IMG/VR virus record: IMGVR_UViG_3300037782_000038 | Location: 1-46,537 of that record | Origin: a virus | Lineage: Duplodnaviria > Caudoviricetes | Length of the DNA stretch: 46,537 nucleotides | Direction: 5' to 3' (one strand) | Part shown: piece by piece, positions 5,961-45,621 of the stretch | Layout of the letters: each line of letters opens with the position of its first letter | Position numbering within the stretch: the first letter of the stretch is position 1 | Made by a program: the position numbers and the translations under genes | The notes under the pieces: generated by a model | What the model saw: only the letters and a program-made list of their open reading frames with translations | Databases searched by the model: none | Told to the model about the DNA's origin: nothing

Positions 5961-6530
5961 ATGAAATCACCTACTGACTTTATATGCGAGCCGAAAGATG
6001 GCCGGAGATACGACAATACCAAGAAGTTTGGAGATGTAGACTTTATCATAAGCTCCTCGGAAGAGGATCACAAAGTCTCCAACAGGATAGCGGTCGTTCA
6101 TGAGCTTCCAAGCAGATACGAGGGGCCTATTAAGAAAGGCGCCGAACTCATCGTACATCACAATGTGTTCAAATACTACAATGACATCAAAGGAAATAAA
6201 AAGAGCGGCAAGAGTTTTTTAAGAGACAATCTGTTCATGCTTGACTCTTATCAGGTGTTCGCATTTAAGAATCCGGGGTGCGAGTGGGTATCTTTAGACG
6301 GATATTCATTTGTAAAACCTGTGAAAGGGCAGGAGCTTCGTCCAATGAAAGCACACAGAGGGTTTGATGATTTAAGAGGGAGAGTAGCTATGAAAAGTCC
6401 GTATTTGAGTGAAAAAGGAGTAAAGATTGGAGATATGGTGTTCTTTGCTCCAGACAGCGAGTACGAATTTCGAATTGACGGAGAGCTGATGTACAGAGTG
6501 ATGGATCAAAGCATATTCGCTACGCTATGA
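5961..6530 (+). CDS. Tandem GroES-like (co-chaperonin fold) protein
   Basis: Two GroES-like halves: AVVHELP..IKKGAELIVH and FVKPV..GRVAM..GVKIGDMVFF..EYEFRIDGELMYRVMDQSIFA. Confidence 0.65.
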   Translation: MKSPTDFICEPKDGRRYDNTKKFGDVDFIISSSEEDHKVSNRIAVVHELPSRYEGPIKKGAELIVHHNVFKYYNDIKGNKKSGKSFLRDNLFMLDSYQVFAFKNPGCEWVSLDGYSFVKPVKGQELRPMKAHRGFDDLRGRVAMKSPYLSEKGVKIGDMVFFAPDSEYEFRIDGELMYRVMDQSIFATL

Positions 6531-36160: not shown

Positions 36161-36622
36161 TTAATCAGAAACCATTTGTCTTATTTTCCAAAAAGCATCC
36201 CTATACTTTGGGTTCGAGTCAGTCTCGTAAGTCTCTGCCTTTTTTATTCCGGAATGGACGCTCGAATGATCCTTTCCTACTACCCTCCCTATCTCTCCAA
36301 GAGACTTGTAGGGAAATTTTTGGTGAGCTAGGTAAAAATACAAATACCGAGTCTTCACAAGAACAGGGTCCCTAGAGATACTCTTGATAAGGTTCCAGTC
36401 AGTACCTAGTGCTTCACACACCTTGAACAGAAGATTCTCCAGATCCGGATCCGTCTTCTTCTTTTGGTCCTGACCCAAGATCTTCTGTATCCATGTCTTC
36501 TCCTTCTCCAGATACTTCATTTTCTTCGGTATCTCCCCCGTCTGGTAAAGTGCTTCCCTCATCTTGGGGTTCTCCTCCAGCTCCTGAATCAACAGTCGTA
36601 GAGGGCTCTTCTTTTTTAGCAT
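36161..36622 (-). CDS. DnaA domain IV-like helix-turn-helix protein
   Basis: IKSISRDPVLVKTRYLYFYLA..SLGEIGRVVGKDHSSVHSGIKK parallels the DnaA C-terminal signature SLxEIGxxFGxRDHTTV. Start codon uncertain. Confidence 0.8.
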   Translation of the reverse strand: MLKKKSPLRLLIQELEENPKMREALYQTGEIPKKMKYLEKEKTWIQKILGQDQKKKTDPDLENLLFKVCEALGTDWNLIKSISRDPVLVKTRYLYFYLAHQKFPYKSLGEIGRVVGKDHSSVHSGIKKAETYETDSNPKYRDAFWKIRQMVSD

Positions 36623-36827
36623 CTTTCTCAAGTTTAATTATACCTTTCTTTTTAATGTGCTCAGCAAGTCTGCCTGACTGAGCCTCGGTTACAGGAACCG
36701 GTATGGTCAACCCTCTTTTGCCGGCTATGTTCAATAGCTTGATAACCTCTTTTTCGGTGGTTGTAACAATAACCTTTCCTGTTTTTGCGGATTCTTTCAC
36801 CGCCTTGATCGAATTGTTCATAATCAA
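36414..36827 (-). CDS. Hypothetical protein, basic N-terminal half and acidic disordered tail overlapping the next gene
   Basis: Start coupled to the upstream stop; the last ~69 codons overlap the HTH gene in another frame. Confidence 0.6.
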   Translation of the reverse strand: MIMNNSIKAVKESAKTGKVIVTTTEKEVIKLLNIAGKRGLTIPVPVTEAQSGRLAEHIKKKGIIKLEKDAKKEEPSTTVDSGAGGEPQDEGSTLPDGGDTEENEVSGEGEDMDTEDLGSGPKEEDGSGSGESSVQGV

Positions 36828-38325: not shown

Positions 38326-38808
38326 TTAAAATAGAGGTTTACCTGAATTCATTTCAGATTTTTTGCCTTCAAAAGGATCAGATGCGTTCTCTTCGGAAGA
38401 GATGTCAGGTCCCGGAGACGGTTCAGCTTGTCTTCTTCTAGAGCTTCCACTATTAGGGTTAGAGCTTCCGTCTTTCTTCCCTTCTGATCCTCCAAGAAGG
38501 ACAAGGTTAGTTCCTTTAATAGTTGTTGTGTACACGGTGGCGCCTTCTTTATTCTCATAGCTTCCGTAAACAATTTCTCCATCTACAGATAAAAGGTCGC
38601 CTTTCTTTACGTATGGATCGATCACTTTTTCAGCTACAGGACCCCAGAATTCTACTCTATGCCACTGCGTGTCTTCTACAGTCTCTCCATTTTTGTCTTT
38701 CCATTTTTTGGATGTAGCCAAGGAGAATCTAGCTACTGTTGATTTTTCGAAGTTCTGCACTTCTGGGTCAGCGCCCACACGCCCAATAAGGCTTACATGA
38801 TTTTTCAT
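38326..38808 (-). CDS. ssb: Single-stranded DNA-binding protein
   Basis: NHVSLIGRVGADPE..FSLATS..TQWHRVEFWG..KKGDLLSVDGEI OB-fold, with flexible tail. Confidence 0.95.
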   Translation of the reverse strand: MKNHVSLIGRVGADPEVQNFEKSTVARFSLATSKKWKDKNGETVEDTQWHRVEFWGPVAEKVIDPYVKKGDLLSVDGEIVYGSYENKEGATVYTTTIKGTNLVLLGGSEGKKDGSSNPNSGSSRRRQAEPSPGPDISSEENASDPFEGKKSEMNSGKPLF

Positions 38809-38829: not shown

Positions 38830-38903
38830 TACCCTCGGCAGGATTCGAACCTGCGACCGTCTGCTTAGAAGGCAGATGCTCTATCCAGCTGAGCTACGAA
38901 GGC
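38830..38903 (-). tRNA. tRNA-Arg (TCT)
   Basis: GCCTTCGTAGCTCAGCTGGATAGAGCATCTGC-CTTCTAA-GCAGACGGTCGCAGGTTCGAATCCTGCCGAGGGTA folds into a full cloverleaf; no encoded CCA. Confidence 0.95.
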
Positions 38904-38922
38904 AAATAAAACTATTTAGTTG

Positions 38923-39120
38923 CCAGTGAGGTGAGGGTCGAACTCACAACATAACTTCTATTTACTAAAGAGGTAATCTGTAGTTTCGGTTATATTCTTT
39001 ATTTCAAGATTTCTTGTATAAGTGTATTAACACTCCCTACTCGTAAGACACATTCTAAATTTCTTCGTTATGTCAATACTAGGACGCATCCTAGCTGTAT
39101 CTCCATTGATACTCTCACCG
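38923..39120 (-). ncRNA. 198-nt tRNA-like RNA with a large insert (unassigned; some tmRNA-like traits)
   Basis: Acceptor-like stem CGGTGAG/CTCACTG plus G, D-like arm GTATC-AATGGA-GATAC, hairpin GCTAGGA-TGCG-TCCTAGT, long domain closed by GACATAAC/GTTATGTT, T-arm GTGAG-TTCGACC-CTCAC. Confidence 0.75.
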
Positions 39121-39123
39121 ATA

Positions 39124-39348
39124 AAAACCATTCTGTCCTCTCCAATTGAGGAATGCTTTAATGCTTCCTGATGCCAAATACCCCGCATATTCTAAATAAC
39201 CTGATTGGGACAAGTTGCCTCTACATTTACTTCATATTCATTCAAGCCTAAGCACCTCTTGGATGGTGCTACCCTCATCGACAGTTGAATCCGATACATG
39301 CAATCCTACCCTAGGTTTGAGCTGCTTGTAATGAATCAGAATGGTTTT
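39124..39348 (-). ncRNA. ~225-nt structured RNA, unassigned
   Basis: Perfect 12-bp terminal stem AAAACCATTCTG/CAGAATGGTTTT enclosing several nested helices; fills the gap between tRNA-Ile2 and the tRNA-like RNA almost exactly. Confidence 0.65.
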
Positions 39349-39349
39349 G

Positions 39350-39423
39350 TGGTCCCTGCAGGGCTCGAACCTGCGACCGCCTGATTATGAGTCAGGAGCT
39401 CTAACCAACTGAGCTAAGGAACC
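39350..39423 (-). tRNA. tRNA with CAT anticodon, most likely Ile2 (lysidine type) rather than Met
   Basis: GGTTCCTTAGCTCAGTTGGTTAGAGCTCCTGA-CTCATAA-TCAGGCGGTCGCAGGTTCGAGCCCTGCAGGGACCA. Paired G1-C72 and no GGG/CCC anticodon stem exclude an initiator; the body resembles bacterial Ile2. Confidence 0.9.
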
Positions 39424-39432
39424 TGTCTTAGA

Positions 39433-39684
39433 TTAAGGTGACACCTCCTCAAAGTTCTCTTGGAAATACTCTCTACTAACCAGCCACATATCGTTGTGGT
39501 TGTCCGGATTTTGGGCGATCATGTCACCAATCTTTGGAGACCCATTTTCAATATCTGAAATAGATATTCTTACAGGAGCCCCATCAATATATAAATTCTT
39601 TTTTCTGACGTAACGATCAATCATTTCGTCAGTTACCGGAGCCATCTCCGATACGTTTGTTCTTTTGTACTTCTTAAATTCCAT
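39433..39684 (-). CDS. Small phage protein of unknown function
   Basis: FKKYKR..PKIGDMIAQNPDNHNDMWLVSREYFQENFE, a pattern seen in small phage proteins. Confidence 0.75.
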   Translation of the reverse strand: MEFKKYKRTNVSEMAPVTDEMIDRYVRKKNLYIDGAPVRISISDIENGSPKIGDMIAQNPDNHNDMWLVSREYFQENFEEVSP

Positions 39685-39688
39685 TTGA

Positions 39689-39784
39689 TTAATTTTTGAT
39701 CCACTCTTTTATTCTCCAAGCAATCAGAACGTAGATCCCGACCACTATTGGGAGTGTTATTGCTACTTTTAATACGTCTACCAT
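39689..39784 (-). CDS. 31-aa single-pass membrane peptide (below the ORF-track cutoff)
   Basis: MVDVLKVAITLPIVVGIYVLIAWRIKEWIKN*; start overlaps the upstream TAG and the ORF fills the gap exactly. Confidence 0.6.
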   Translation of the reverse strand: MVDVLKVAITLPIVVGIYVLIAWRIKEWIKN

Positions 39785-40008
39785 GTTATTTTTATTTCGC
39801 CAGTTTTCCAATTCGTTACAACAGTCTGGGACACCTTGGCATCATTCCTCTTAATCACTGTAAATCCTTTGCCACTGCGGTCTGAGTGATGTATCTCTAC
39901 CTCTGAAGGCTTAACGTATTGATGCAAAGATAGATATTTTTTCAACATCGTTTCCACAATGGAATCCCTTCTTTCAGTAATATTTTGGATCTTTTTCAAT
40001 TGCTCCAT
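39778..40008 (-). CDS. Hypothetical protein
   Basis: 76 aa, co-oriented and packed with neighbours. Confidence 0.6.
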   Translation of the reverse strand: MEQLKKIQNITERRDSIVETMLKKYLSLHQYVKPSEVEIHHSDRSGKGFTVIKRNDAKVSQTVVTNWKTGEIKITW

Positions 40009-44471: not shown

Positions 44472-44857
44472 TTTGATTTGATTTTATTGGTTATTGATTC
44501 AATTTGTTCTGAAATTATTCGAGCCTTCTCAAAGTCGTCCACCGCTACAGCGAGGTCTCGGTCCTGATGAAGAAAGTAAAGGTCTACCTTAAGGGATTGC
44601 AAATATAGAGATTTAGTCCCTTGAACCCACCCCTCTTTAAGTAGTAAATCTACTTCATAAGGTTTGAGCTCATCGTAAAAGTCCCTCTTAACTAAGGTGT
44701 TATAAACCTTTACCTCTTCTGTAATCAAGGATTTAACAATCTTATATCCGTTCTTGAAAACTGCTTCTTCTGTCGGGGTAGATATTTGCGTTGTCCCGTA
44801 GGTCAACCTAGATTCTACTGCCTCTTGAAACAGGTCTATCATATCTCGCTCAACCAT
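44468..44857 (-). CDS. Hypothetical protein with C-terminal UVR-like motif
   Basis: AVAVDDFEKARIISEQI resembles the UvrB/UvrC coiled motif. Confidence 0.6.
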   Translation of the reverse strand: MVERDMIDLFQEAVESRLTYGTTQISTPTEEAVFKNGYKIVKSLITEEVKVYNTLVKRDFYDELKPYEVDLLLKEGWVQGTKSLYLQSLKVDLYFLHQDRDLAVAVDDFEKARIISEQIESITNKIKSK

Positions 44858-45621
44858 CTATCTATCATTTTTTTGTATTCAGGAATCTCATTGTACAAAT
44901 TCTCCCATACCGCTACAGCATGGTTGATATTCTGTTGGGTGCATTCGAACCCGTTGACCACGAAGAAGTTTTGAATCTCGTGAGGAGGAACGCCACTCAT
45001 ATAGCATAGATACATGACCAATTGCCGTGTCCTGCTCAGAACTCGCTTTCTGTTTTTTCGGAATAGTCGCTCTCGGGTCACTCCGTAAACCCCTTCGGCA
45101 TTGCTTACATGCCTTTCAAAAATTTCTTGATTTACCATTGTATTTGCTTTCTTTTTTAATTGCGATAGGATTGTATCTCTTTGTATCATATAGATCGTAG
45201 AATACACAGACGGATCAAACCTTCTAATTTGCTTCACTAGATGAACGTGAGGTCGGATAATTGAGTCGTCTCCATGGAGCGTGCTAACCAAGTCAGTCAG
45301 GATCTTTTTCAACCTTTCATCCTGCTCGTTGTTAATCAACGACATGTATGCACCCCTGTCTATTTTCGAAACATCAGGCTCAAAAATGAGCATATCTAAC
45401 GCTCTTTTTCCGTCGGGCGATAGGTGGTTGCTTATGGTCATTACGGCCATCAGCAAGAACTTTGTTCTGTTCTCGGTGTAGCCGTTGACCTTAAGATCAG
45501 CCCACTCAATCCATTCAGCTCGAGCCTCTCGAATAGCCTTTTCTACCGACGTGTATTTACCGAACTTTTGGAGTCCGTTCTCGCAGGCATTTATTTTCTT
45601 CAATATAGGCTCTAACTGCAT
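44839..45621 (-). CDS. Protein with a C-terminal DnaA domain IV-like region
   Basis: VYGVTRERLFRKNRKRVLSRTRQLVMYLC parallels DnaA's 'dl.s..R...i...RqiamYl'; recognition helix is divergent. Confidence 0.6.
   Translation of the reverse strand: MQLEPILKKINACENGLQKFGKYTSVEKAIREARAEWIEWADLKVNGYTENRTKFLLMAVMTISNHLSPDGKRALDMLIFEPDVSKIDRGAYMSLINNEQDERLKKILTDLVSTLHGDDSIIRPHVHLVKQIRRFDPSVYSTIYMIQRDTILSQLKKKANTMVNQEIFERHVSNAEGVYGVTRERLFRKNRKRVLSRTRQLVMYLCYMSGVPPHEIQNFFVVNGFECTQQNINHAVAVWENLYNEIPEYKKMIDRWLSEI

Follow-up and report, generated by a model that had tools for sequence, protein, structure and literature searches.

Genes and features of the locus

The window, by which we mean the whole 46,537-nt stretch of DNA analysed here, is a virus record of 46.5 kb with a completeness of about 77%. 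Its terminase is 46% identical to that of Flavobacterium elemo phages and also matched Cellulophaga, Tenacibaculum and Maribacter phages (87 records). Relatives of its primase number in the thousands, and the best 119 are all at 58% identity or below. Together, these matches mark it as a flavobacterial-type phage with no close sequenced relative. Elsewhere in the window, DnaA C-terminal helix-turn-helix domains occur in two ORFs (36161-36631 and 44839-45621) and a GroES-like gene lies at 5961-6530.

The cassette considered here is located in a replication block on the minus strand, with primase and four small ORFs on one side and ssb on the other. Along that strand the order is tRNA-Ile2(CAU), a 229-nt clamped segment, a 198-nt tRNA-like RNA and tRNA-Arg(UCU), followed by ssb. 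The features of the locus are the following.

39778-40008, minus strand: 76-aa ORF upstream of the 31-aa ORF, enclosing the promoter-like element
39924-39932, minus strand: promoter-like -7 element, TAnnTTTG(C), candidate transcript start for the cassette
39689-39784, minus strand: 31-aa ORF upstream of the 83-aa ORF
39433-39684, minus strand: 83-aa ORF that stops 9 nt ahead of tRNA-Ile2 and has no family match
39350-39423, minus strand: tRNA with a CAU anticodon, most likely tRNA-Ile2, with no encoded CCA
39121-39349, minus strand: predicted released RNA of 229 nt, consisting of C74 of the tRNA trailer, a 12-bp clamp, a 201-nt interior and the 3-nt tail UAU
38923-39120, minus strand: 198-nt non-decoding tRNA-elbow RNA
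38904-38922, minus strand: 19-nt A/U-rich spacer, its first base C74 and its last base U-1 of tRNA-Arg
38830-38903, minus strand: tRNA-Arg(UCU), with G1-U72 and no encoded CCA
38326-38808, minus strand: ssb, 21 nt downstream of tRNA-Arg with no terminator between

Both tRNAs were found where an earlier note on this DNA had placed them (39423-39350, CAU, and 38903-38830, UCU, on the minus strand), and the gaps of 1, 3 and 19 nt that it gave are correct. ARAGORN labels the CAU tRNA as Met, from the anticodon alone. When aligned with T5 tRNAs, it scored 48 against the annotated tRNA-Ile2, 40 against fMet and 35 against Met, and among the E. coli matches listed 13 of 15 are annotated as tRNA-Ile. 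These comparisons bear out the Ile2 identity given in the note as the best reading, and the tRNA most likely reads AUA after lysidine modification by the host. In 19 large ORFs AUA is the commonest Ile codon (42%) and AGA the commonest Arg codon (49%), which accounts for the presence of these two tRNAs. The two are 81% alike over 59 nt and mispair with each other in a model of the 594-nt precursor, which is a limit of that model.

We compared four of the 16 listed sequencing runs with the cassette; among the 16 is a single RNA run, which contained 4% of the sequence words. Identical contigs from two further pond runs cover 38967-39305 and show that the cassette was not misassembled; one pond-run contig (X3 record 12, 39026-39234) crosses the point where the two orphan RNAs between the tRNAs meet. 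Contigs of runs X4 and X5 span the elbow RNA (38911-39105 and 38911-39070) and not the 229-nt segment, an absence of cover that proves nothing. The elbow RNA is present in contigs of two further studies, with 6 and 3 differences. A 53-aa ORF at 39188-39027 was rejected as a chance ORF; it runs into the elbow RNA and has no PHROG, Pfam or tblastn match.

The elbow RNA and the clamped segment

The 198-nt RNA has the following parts.

39120-39114 and 38930-38924, minus strand: acceptor stem, 7 bp, CGGUGAG/CUCACUG, with C1-G72
39112-39097, minus strand: D arm, 5 bp, with an AAUGGA loop and G18-G19
39095-39078, minus strand: 7-bp hairpin with a UGCG tetraloop, at the anticodon position
39074-38948, minus strand: variable region, 127 nt
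38947-38931, minus strand: canonical T arm
38923, minus strand: discriminator G (G73)

The tRNA-like RNA that had been proposed at 39120-38923 is real: it has acceptor, D and T arms, a unit of this elbow type arose in 1 of 20,000 dinucleotide shuffles of the 445-nt stretch between the tRNAs, and its whole fold has a z of -2.7 relative to shuffles. Its ends are U-1 and C74, and it departs from the usual tRNA body at C1-G72 and A8. The stability of the insert is at shuffle level (z +0.07), and a local alternative fold competes with the helix that closes the variable region. As a separate observation, this helix (39073-39067 / 38955-38949) looks like the outer boxes of attC-like palindromic elements; no integrase was recognised in the window.

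The RNA has no anticodon loop and is unable to decode. Read as a decoding tRNA, intron-containing forms included, it has no 5-bp stem with a 7-nt anticodon loop, no U33 and no purine 37, and it gave no Rfam tRNA match at E up to 10. An intron-containing tRNA surfaces only at a lowered ARAGORN threshold, which calls many false genes, and was rejected. A one- or two-piece tmRNA was also rejected; the RNA has G3-C70 rather than G3-U70 and no ARAGORN or Rfam match to tmRNA. Neither orphan RNA contains the permuted T-then-D order.

Within the 229-nt segment, three elements can be named.

39337-39348, minus strand: clamp 5' arm, 12 nt, 100% complementary to the 3' arm
39124-39135, minus strand: clamp 3' arm, 12 nt, terminating in a U run
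39137-39151, minus strand: small hairpin with a D-loop-like AAUUGGA loop, just ahead of the clamp 3' arm (MFE fold, pair probability below 0.8)

The earlier note called this segment a structured RNA. That description suits the closing stem, a perfect 12-bp helix whose 14-pair score was equalled in 3 of 2000 shuffles and whose pair probabilities were 0.72-1.0 in the whole-precursor model. It does not suit the interior, which has no stability beyond shuffles (z +0.58) and no pair at a probability of at least 0.8, and the whole fold of 39348-39124 reached a z of only -1.7. Rfam families (theta/HDV-like and other ribozymes, 6S, SRP, RNase P, CRISPR repeat and ToxI) gave zero matches in 39124-39348 at E up to 10, and Rfam contains no family that fits either orphan RNA. 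The AAUUGGA hairpin was considered as a domain of a permuted tRNA or YrlA and rejected, there being no matching T arm.

Real and altered spacers were compared in a partition-function calculation that also included tRNA-Ile2 and the elbow. For the real spacer the expected number of pairs with the flanking folds was 0.4, and the two acceptor stems formed beside it (0.98 and 0.99); the spacer also remained self-contained in the 594-nt precursor model. Shuffled spacers formed 2.7-55 pairs with the neighbours in 40 of 40 cases. When the interior alone was shuffled and the clamp left intact, at most 0.6 pairs formed with the neighbours in 20 of 25, so in this model the clamp alone suffices to insulate the flanking tRNA folds. 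It would also guard the ends of an excised RNA.

tRNA-elbow arrays in related phages

Among 80 loci of relatives picked by primase alone, we found 30 elbow units in 21 loci, all 30 on the primase strand as in the window. U-1 is present in 27 of the 30 and C74 in 28, CCA is encoded in one, and a canonical anticodon arm is missing in 25. The majority have the acceptor AGUCAGG/CCUGACU and a Leu-type D arm. The elbow-array design is apparently common in Bacteroidota phages, as one 25-base elbow signature of this family occurs in about 1,300 stored viral stretches (an estimate from 6 of 64 parts). A scaffold set of 135 loci was also retrieved; there C74 is partly fixed by the search pattern, and the primase-picked counts are free of this.

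These counts bear on a reading of the 198-nt RNA as a class II (Ser-like) tRNA gene in decay, in which an insertion and the loss of the anticodon loop have left nothing but a cut site. G73 with a long variable arm corresponds to the serine identity set (partial text of PMC5389517), A8, G2-U71 and the 4-nt loop are non-canonical, and the insert is no more stable than shuffles. However, all four stems are fully paired, the consensus bases of the T and D loops are intact and the stem at the anticodon position is a closed 7-bp helix rather than an eroded one. Both variant sites that are listed, only 2 of the 6 and 3 differences noted above, fall at positions unpaired in the MFE fold (55 and 79), and non-decoding elbows are the rule in the clade. 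We consider decay quite improbable.

No convincing sequence homolog of either orphan RNA was found, and their interiors therefore have no covariation of their own. A blastn search of 38920-39348 against 50,697 phage records gave 4 short matches, none of them T4- or T5-like. Blastn and nhmmer searches of 86 loci, including the 80 primase-picked ones, found no homolog of either RNA, the 135 scaffold loci gave a single weak match inside an ORF, 29 genome-bin loci gave no convincing homolog and an exact 22-base pattern had 0 matches. Matches of 15-54 nt were obtained in 6 of 50 whole relative records (of 82), at E 0.007-0.08. A 90-nt likeness to a spacer of locus L233 was equalled by 5 of 3000 pairwise shuffles but by 20 to 56 of 300 family-wise; pattern scans for it returned that one sequence again and nothing else (5 viral stretches and 24 from metagenomes), and folding the two sequences together gave a poor consensus. 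A resemblance of the elbow insert ends to an intergenic stretch of crAss cr53_1 was rejected. Its 10 viral matches come from a single clade and have no tRNA context, the 3' arm is broken in 2 of the 10 and a local hairpin accounts for the motif.

The 42 loci retrieved with a T-arm pattern contained only ordinary tRNAs and an unrelated, unannotated 90-nt tRNA-like element, located upstream of the DNA polymerase gene (L004:1446-1535, crAss cr130_1; also L108, L110 and L127). This element has an acceptor and a T arm, a hairpin with a UGCG tetraloop where the D arm would be and a compensatory change between variants. Blohavirus-like crAss phages have, ahead of an HNH gene, a multi-hairpin non-coding stretch in which some hairpins show paired changes (L005:1500-1660 and L351-L360); it has no connection with the cassette.

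In the sampled arrays 134 of 192 inserts and spacers, the window's two included, have no relative in the sample, so orphan status is normal in elbow arrays. End-to-end stems of at least 10 pairs close 9 of 59 non-coding spacers between elbow units, the window's included, against 1.06 expected from shuffles that did not hold the A-rich trailer/U-rich leader bias in place, and a few of the spacers counted as non-coding contain a hidden tRNA or short ORF. For coding spacers the count is 1 of 11 against 0.4 expected. Modules swap freely among the relatives' arrays, and three families show double changes in small samples of related sequences: a 4-member family with one member inside an elbow and three between elbows (6 of 19 pairs), a 2-member spacer family (5 of 19) and a 6-member insert family (2 of 12). 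This covariation is suggestive of selection as RNA for some payloads; it concerns the relatives and not the RNAs of the window.

Several modules in these arrays have features of their own. One, at L042:1066-1171, L156:303-402, L179:1671-1773 and L219:1392-1501, is found both as an elbow insert and as a free spacer and has a covarying helix, an invariant core and a possible 6-bp pseudoknot of its 5' part with the core-hairpin loop; none of its Rfam matches reached the gathering score in the two of these four loci that were scanned. L164:2401-2543 and L219:2420-2560 share a clamped spacer RNA of 140 nt (76% identity) that has double changes in all four helices, long invariant single strands and no Rfam match. 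A GAC..GGAAAGAC hairpin closes 11 spacers 3-8 nt before the next elbow, where it replaces the end-to-end clamp (for example L042:880-900, L187, L224 and L233:1940-1962), and may be a processing or 3' protection signal.

The earlier note suggested that the two orphan RNAs might act together, and looked to co-occurrence of both in related phages. In that case they would form one functional two-part RNA or RNP in a fixed ratio. They are adjacent with a 3-nt gap, have similar D-loop-like hairpins and share an 11/12 near-repeat (39186-39197 and 39049-39060) with a GAAG motif ahead of each, which could be chance or a common purine-rich loop. However, complementarity between them is at chance (257 of 300 shuffles as good), cross pairing is zero in the precursor model and no relative or locus was found to carry the two together. 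A pattern that links both D-like loops gave 20 viral stretches, none with a tRNA or homolog. The free shuffling of modules among relatives also speaks against a pair, as does the lack of any RNA-binding or RNA-repair partner gene recognised near the cassette by family searches of this record, about 77% complete. Joint action is very improbable in our estimation, and the two RNAs are most likely independent passengers rather than a pair.

It could also be that the elbow is processed and the 229-nt segment is only an insulated spacer, whether former cargo or an insert in decay, with the clamp kept for the folding and cutting of its neighbours and the excised piece degraded. Within the segment the support is for the clamp alone, which by itself insulates in the model, and no homolog was found, as for most sampled modules. 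Against this, the clamp-closed RNAs of T5 are annotated as stable even though T5 RNA interiors are likewise near shuffles (z -0.1 to -1.7, three of four not clearly above shuffle stability), so a weak interior is compatible with a stable RNA. Moreover, spacer modules of relatives covary, and 229 nt of filler between two tRNA folds is costly for a compact phage. We regard a mere spacer as rather unlikely, though deserving of serious consideration.

Processing model and comparison with known systems

Matches of the TAnnTTTG(C) type number 18 in the window against 6.5 expected, and 39924-39932 is the sole minus-strand promoter-like match between 33731 and 44599. This site (39932-39924) matches TAnnTTTGC, the Bacteroidota -7 consensus. 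A single transcript would start at this promoter-like site, near 39925, and run through the cassette into ssb. RNase P would cut at 39423, 39120 and 38903, where each of the three tRNA folds starts, and RNase Z after the discriminators at 39350, 38923 and 38830, the two decoding tRNAs and the anticodon-less elbow serving as cut marks for these host enzymes. The predicted products are two tRNAs, the 198-nt elbow RNA, the 229-nt clamped RNA (39349-39121) and an ssb mRNA, whose leader of 21 nt would start where tRNA-Arg 3' processing cuts. In the folding model the clamp would keep the long spacer from misfolding the neighbouring tRNA folds. The 198-nt and 229-nt RNAs would then be end-protected small RNAs, stable by analogy with T5 RNAI, RNAIII and RNA1, and in the phage would probably act as protein-binding or decoy RNAs. 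We favor, with a probability of roughly 0.55, the idea that the cassette is a miniature T5-type tRNA operon in which tRNA folds are cut marks that release two end-protected small RNAs.

RNase Z scored above the family cut-off in four of five Bacteroidota-labelled genome bins tested, which are linked to the host only via binning of related phage contigs. The enzyme cuts after the discriminator, and a C directly after the discriminator reduces its efficiency in studied enzymes (partial text of PMC7479834). The tRNA-Ile2 trailer has such a C and is double-stranded from its second base, which counts against an RNase Z cut. Release of the middle RNA by tRNA 3' processing and RNase P, as the earlier note had it, is plausible and has precedent, given U-1/C74 ends as in relatives and RNase Z in most of the bins; its length, however, would be 229 nt (39349-39121) rather than 225 nt, assuming a cut just after the discriminator.

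No consensus terminator was found on the minus strand inside the cassette or before ssb, in line with the claim that there is no internal terminator, but the UUUUUAU after the clamp may be a long-loop terminator or pause. The clamp and its U-tail would in that case tune read-through into the elbow, tRNA-Arg and ssb. The clamp has an 8-bp core followed by UUUUUAU that matches an upstream A run, and many clamps of relatives are A-rich at the 5' side and U-rich at the 3' side. The 201-nt loop, on the other hand, is far beyond terminator consensus, and no promoter-like TAnnTTTGC lies between the clamp and the downstream essential replication genes. We give such a role for the clamp hardly any credence. 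The earlier note also had the two RNAs made in equal amounts, for which there is no support; stability and a possible pause at the clamp U-tail would decouple their amounts.

Within the processing model that we favor, the diversity of orphan RNAs and their location in an early/replication block are compatible with a role as decoys or protein ligands in the conflict between phage and host. That the cargo counters a host defence or binds a host RNA-handling protein is a speculative proposal that we consider rather unlikely. More speculatively, and on balance unlikely, tRNA elbows and end-to-end clamps could be a modular chassis in Bacteroidota phages for hundreds of functional small RNAs, grafted in or between elbows as a fast-evolving arsenal against host defences, with the window's orphans as two payloads. 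If at least some payloads are selected as RNAs, the arrays would be an overlooked store of phage non-coding RNAs. The function of the stable RNAs in the T4 and T5 tRNA clusters has been open for decades, and the cassette, which is compact (594 nt), self-contained and has two true tRNAs as built-in processing controls, makes the question easily tested.

Several known RNAs share single features with the cassette. Theta (HDV-like) ribozymes likewise lie directly 3' of phage tRNAs in Bacteroidota phages, but start at the cleavage G and cut off their own trailer (partial text of PMC10879173), whereas the window's trailer starts C-A-A-A-A, measures 229 nt with an end-to-end clamp and matches no ribozyme family. 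YrlA Y RNAs (Rfam RF02553) also mimic the tRNA elbow; this reading was rejected, the 20-bit match (cut-off 69) joining the T arm of the elbow to the D arm of tRNA-Arg across the boundary, and no Ro60/TROVE gene was matched in 30 ORFs scanned of the record, about 77% complete. Allo-tRNAs share elbow mimicry and a long variable arm with G73 (partial text of PMC5389517), but the elbow RNA has a 7/5 fold rather than 8/4 or 9/3 and a tetraloop instead of an anticodon loop, and was rejected as an allo-tRNA.

The unannotated AGUCAGG/CCUGACU Leu-type arrays of related Bacteroidota phages are alike in clade, strand, gene region, U-1/C74 ends, non-decoding inserts and clamped spacers. The window's elbow differs in its CGGUGAG/CUCACUG acceptor, G73 and D arm, and at 198 nt is longer than all 104 units of 100-200 nt sampled by an identical rule (longest 191). 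In the literature (subscription-only papers, the original T5 work and bioRxiv supplements lying outside its scope) we found no description of these arrays and no function for the T5 RNAs.

The cassette was presented in the earlier note as a candidate for an undescribed system. That is not supported, as an equivalent layout is annotated in T5, and rnaC and rnaD of T4 are also known. T4 RnaC and RnaD (species 1 and 2 RNAs; NC_000866) are small stable RNAs cut from the tRNA-cluster transcript (partial text of PMC2330249), seen by Northern blot and with function still unknown (partial text of PMC9697503). As predicted for the window's RNAs, they derive from a tRNA transcript, and RnaC terminates in a T arm. 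They lie at the cluster end, however, whereas those of the window lie between two tRNAs; RnaC has no D arm, and there is no sequence similarity.

In the T5 record (AY543070) rna1 (tRNA-like), rnaI, rnaIII and tRNA-His abut in transcription order with gaps of 0-4 nt, and rna2, rnaIV and rna2H are located elsewhere; all are annotated as stable RNAs of unknown function. Laboratory growth of T5 does not require its tRNA region, although that region counters PARIS via a tRNA (partial text of PMC11464382). RNA1 and RNA2 belong to the elbow type, with acceptor, D and T arms around large non-decoding middles, and RNAIII, RNAIV and RNA2H are multibranch RNAs closed by a terminal stem. A covariance model built from the elbows of relatives ranked T5 RNA1 first (28 bits) and matched the window's elbow end to end but weakly (13.2 bits, E 0.05-0.07). 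The window's RNAs share no sequence similarity with those of T5 and are larger (198 and 229 nt versus 103-172). CCA is encoded by most of the T5 genes (E. coli-type maturation) but is absent from those of the window; the window's elbow differs in the distinct tetraloop hairpin that takes the anticodon position and in its enlarged variable region, and only two true tRNAs are present, inside a replication operon. As in T5, the orphan RNAs abut tRNAs on one strand with gaps of a few bases, the elbow keeps acceptor, D and T arms around a large middle with no decoding loop, and the 229-nt segment is closed by a terminal stem at its predicted processing boundaries. The cassette thus has the architecture that defines the T5 cluster, without sequence homology to it.
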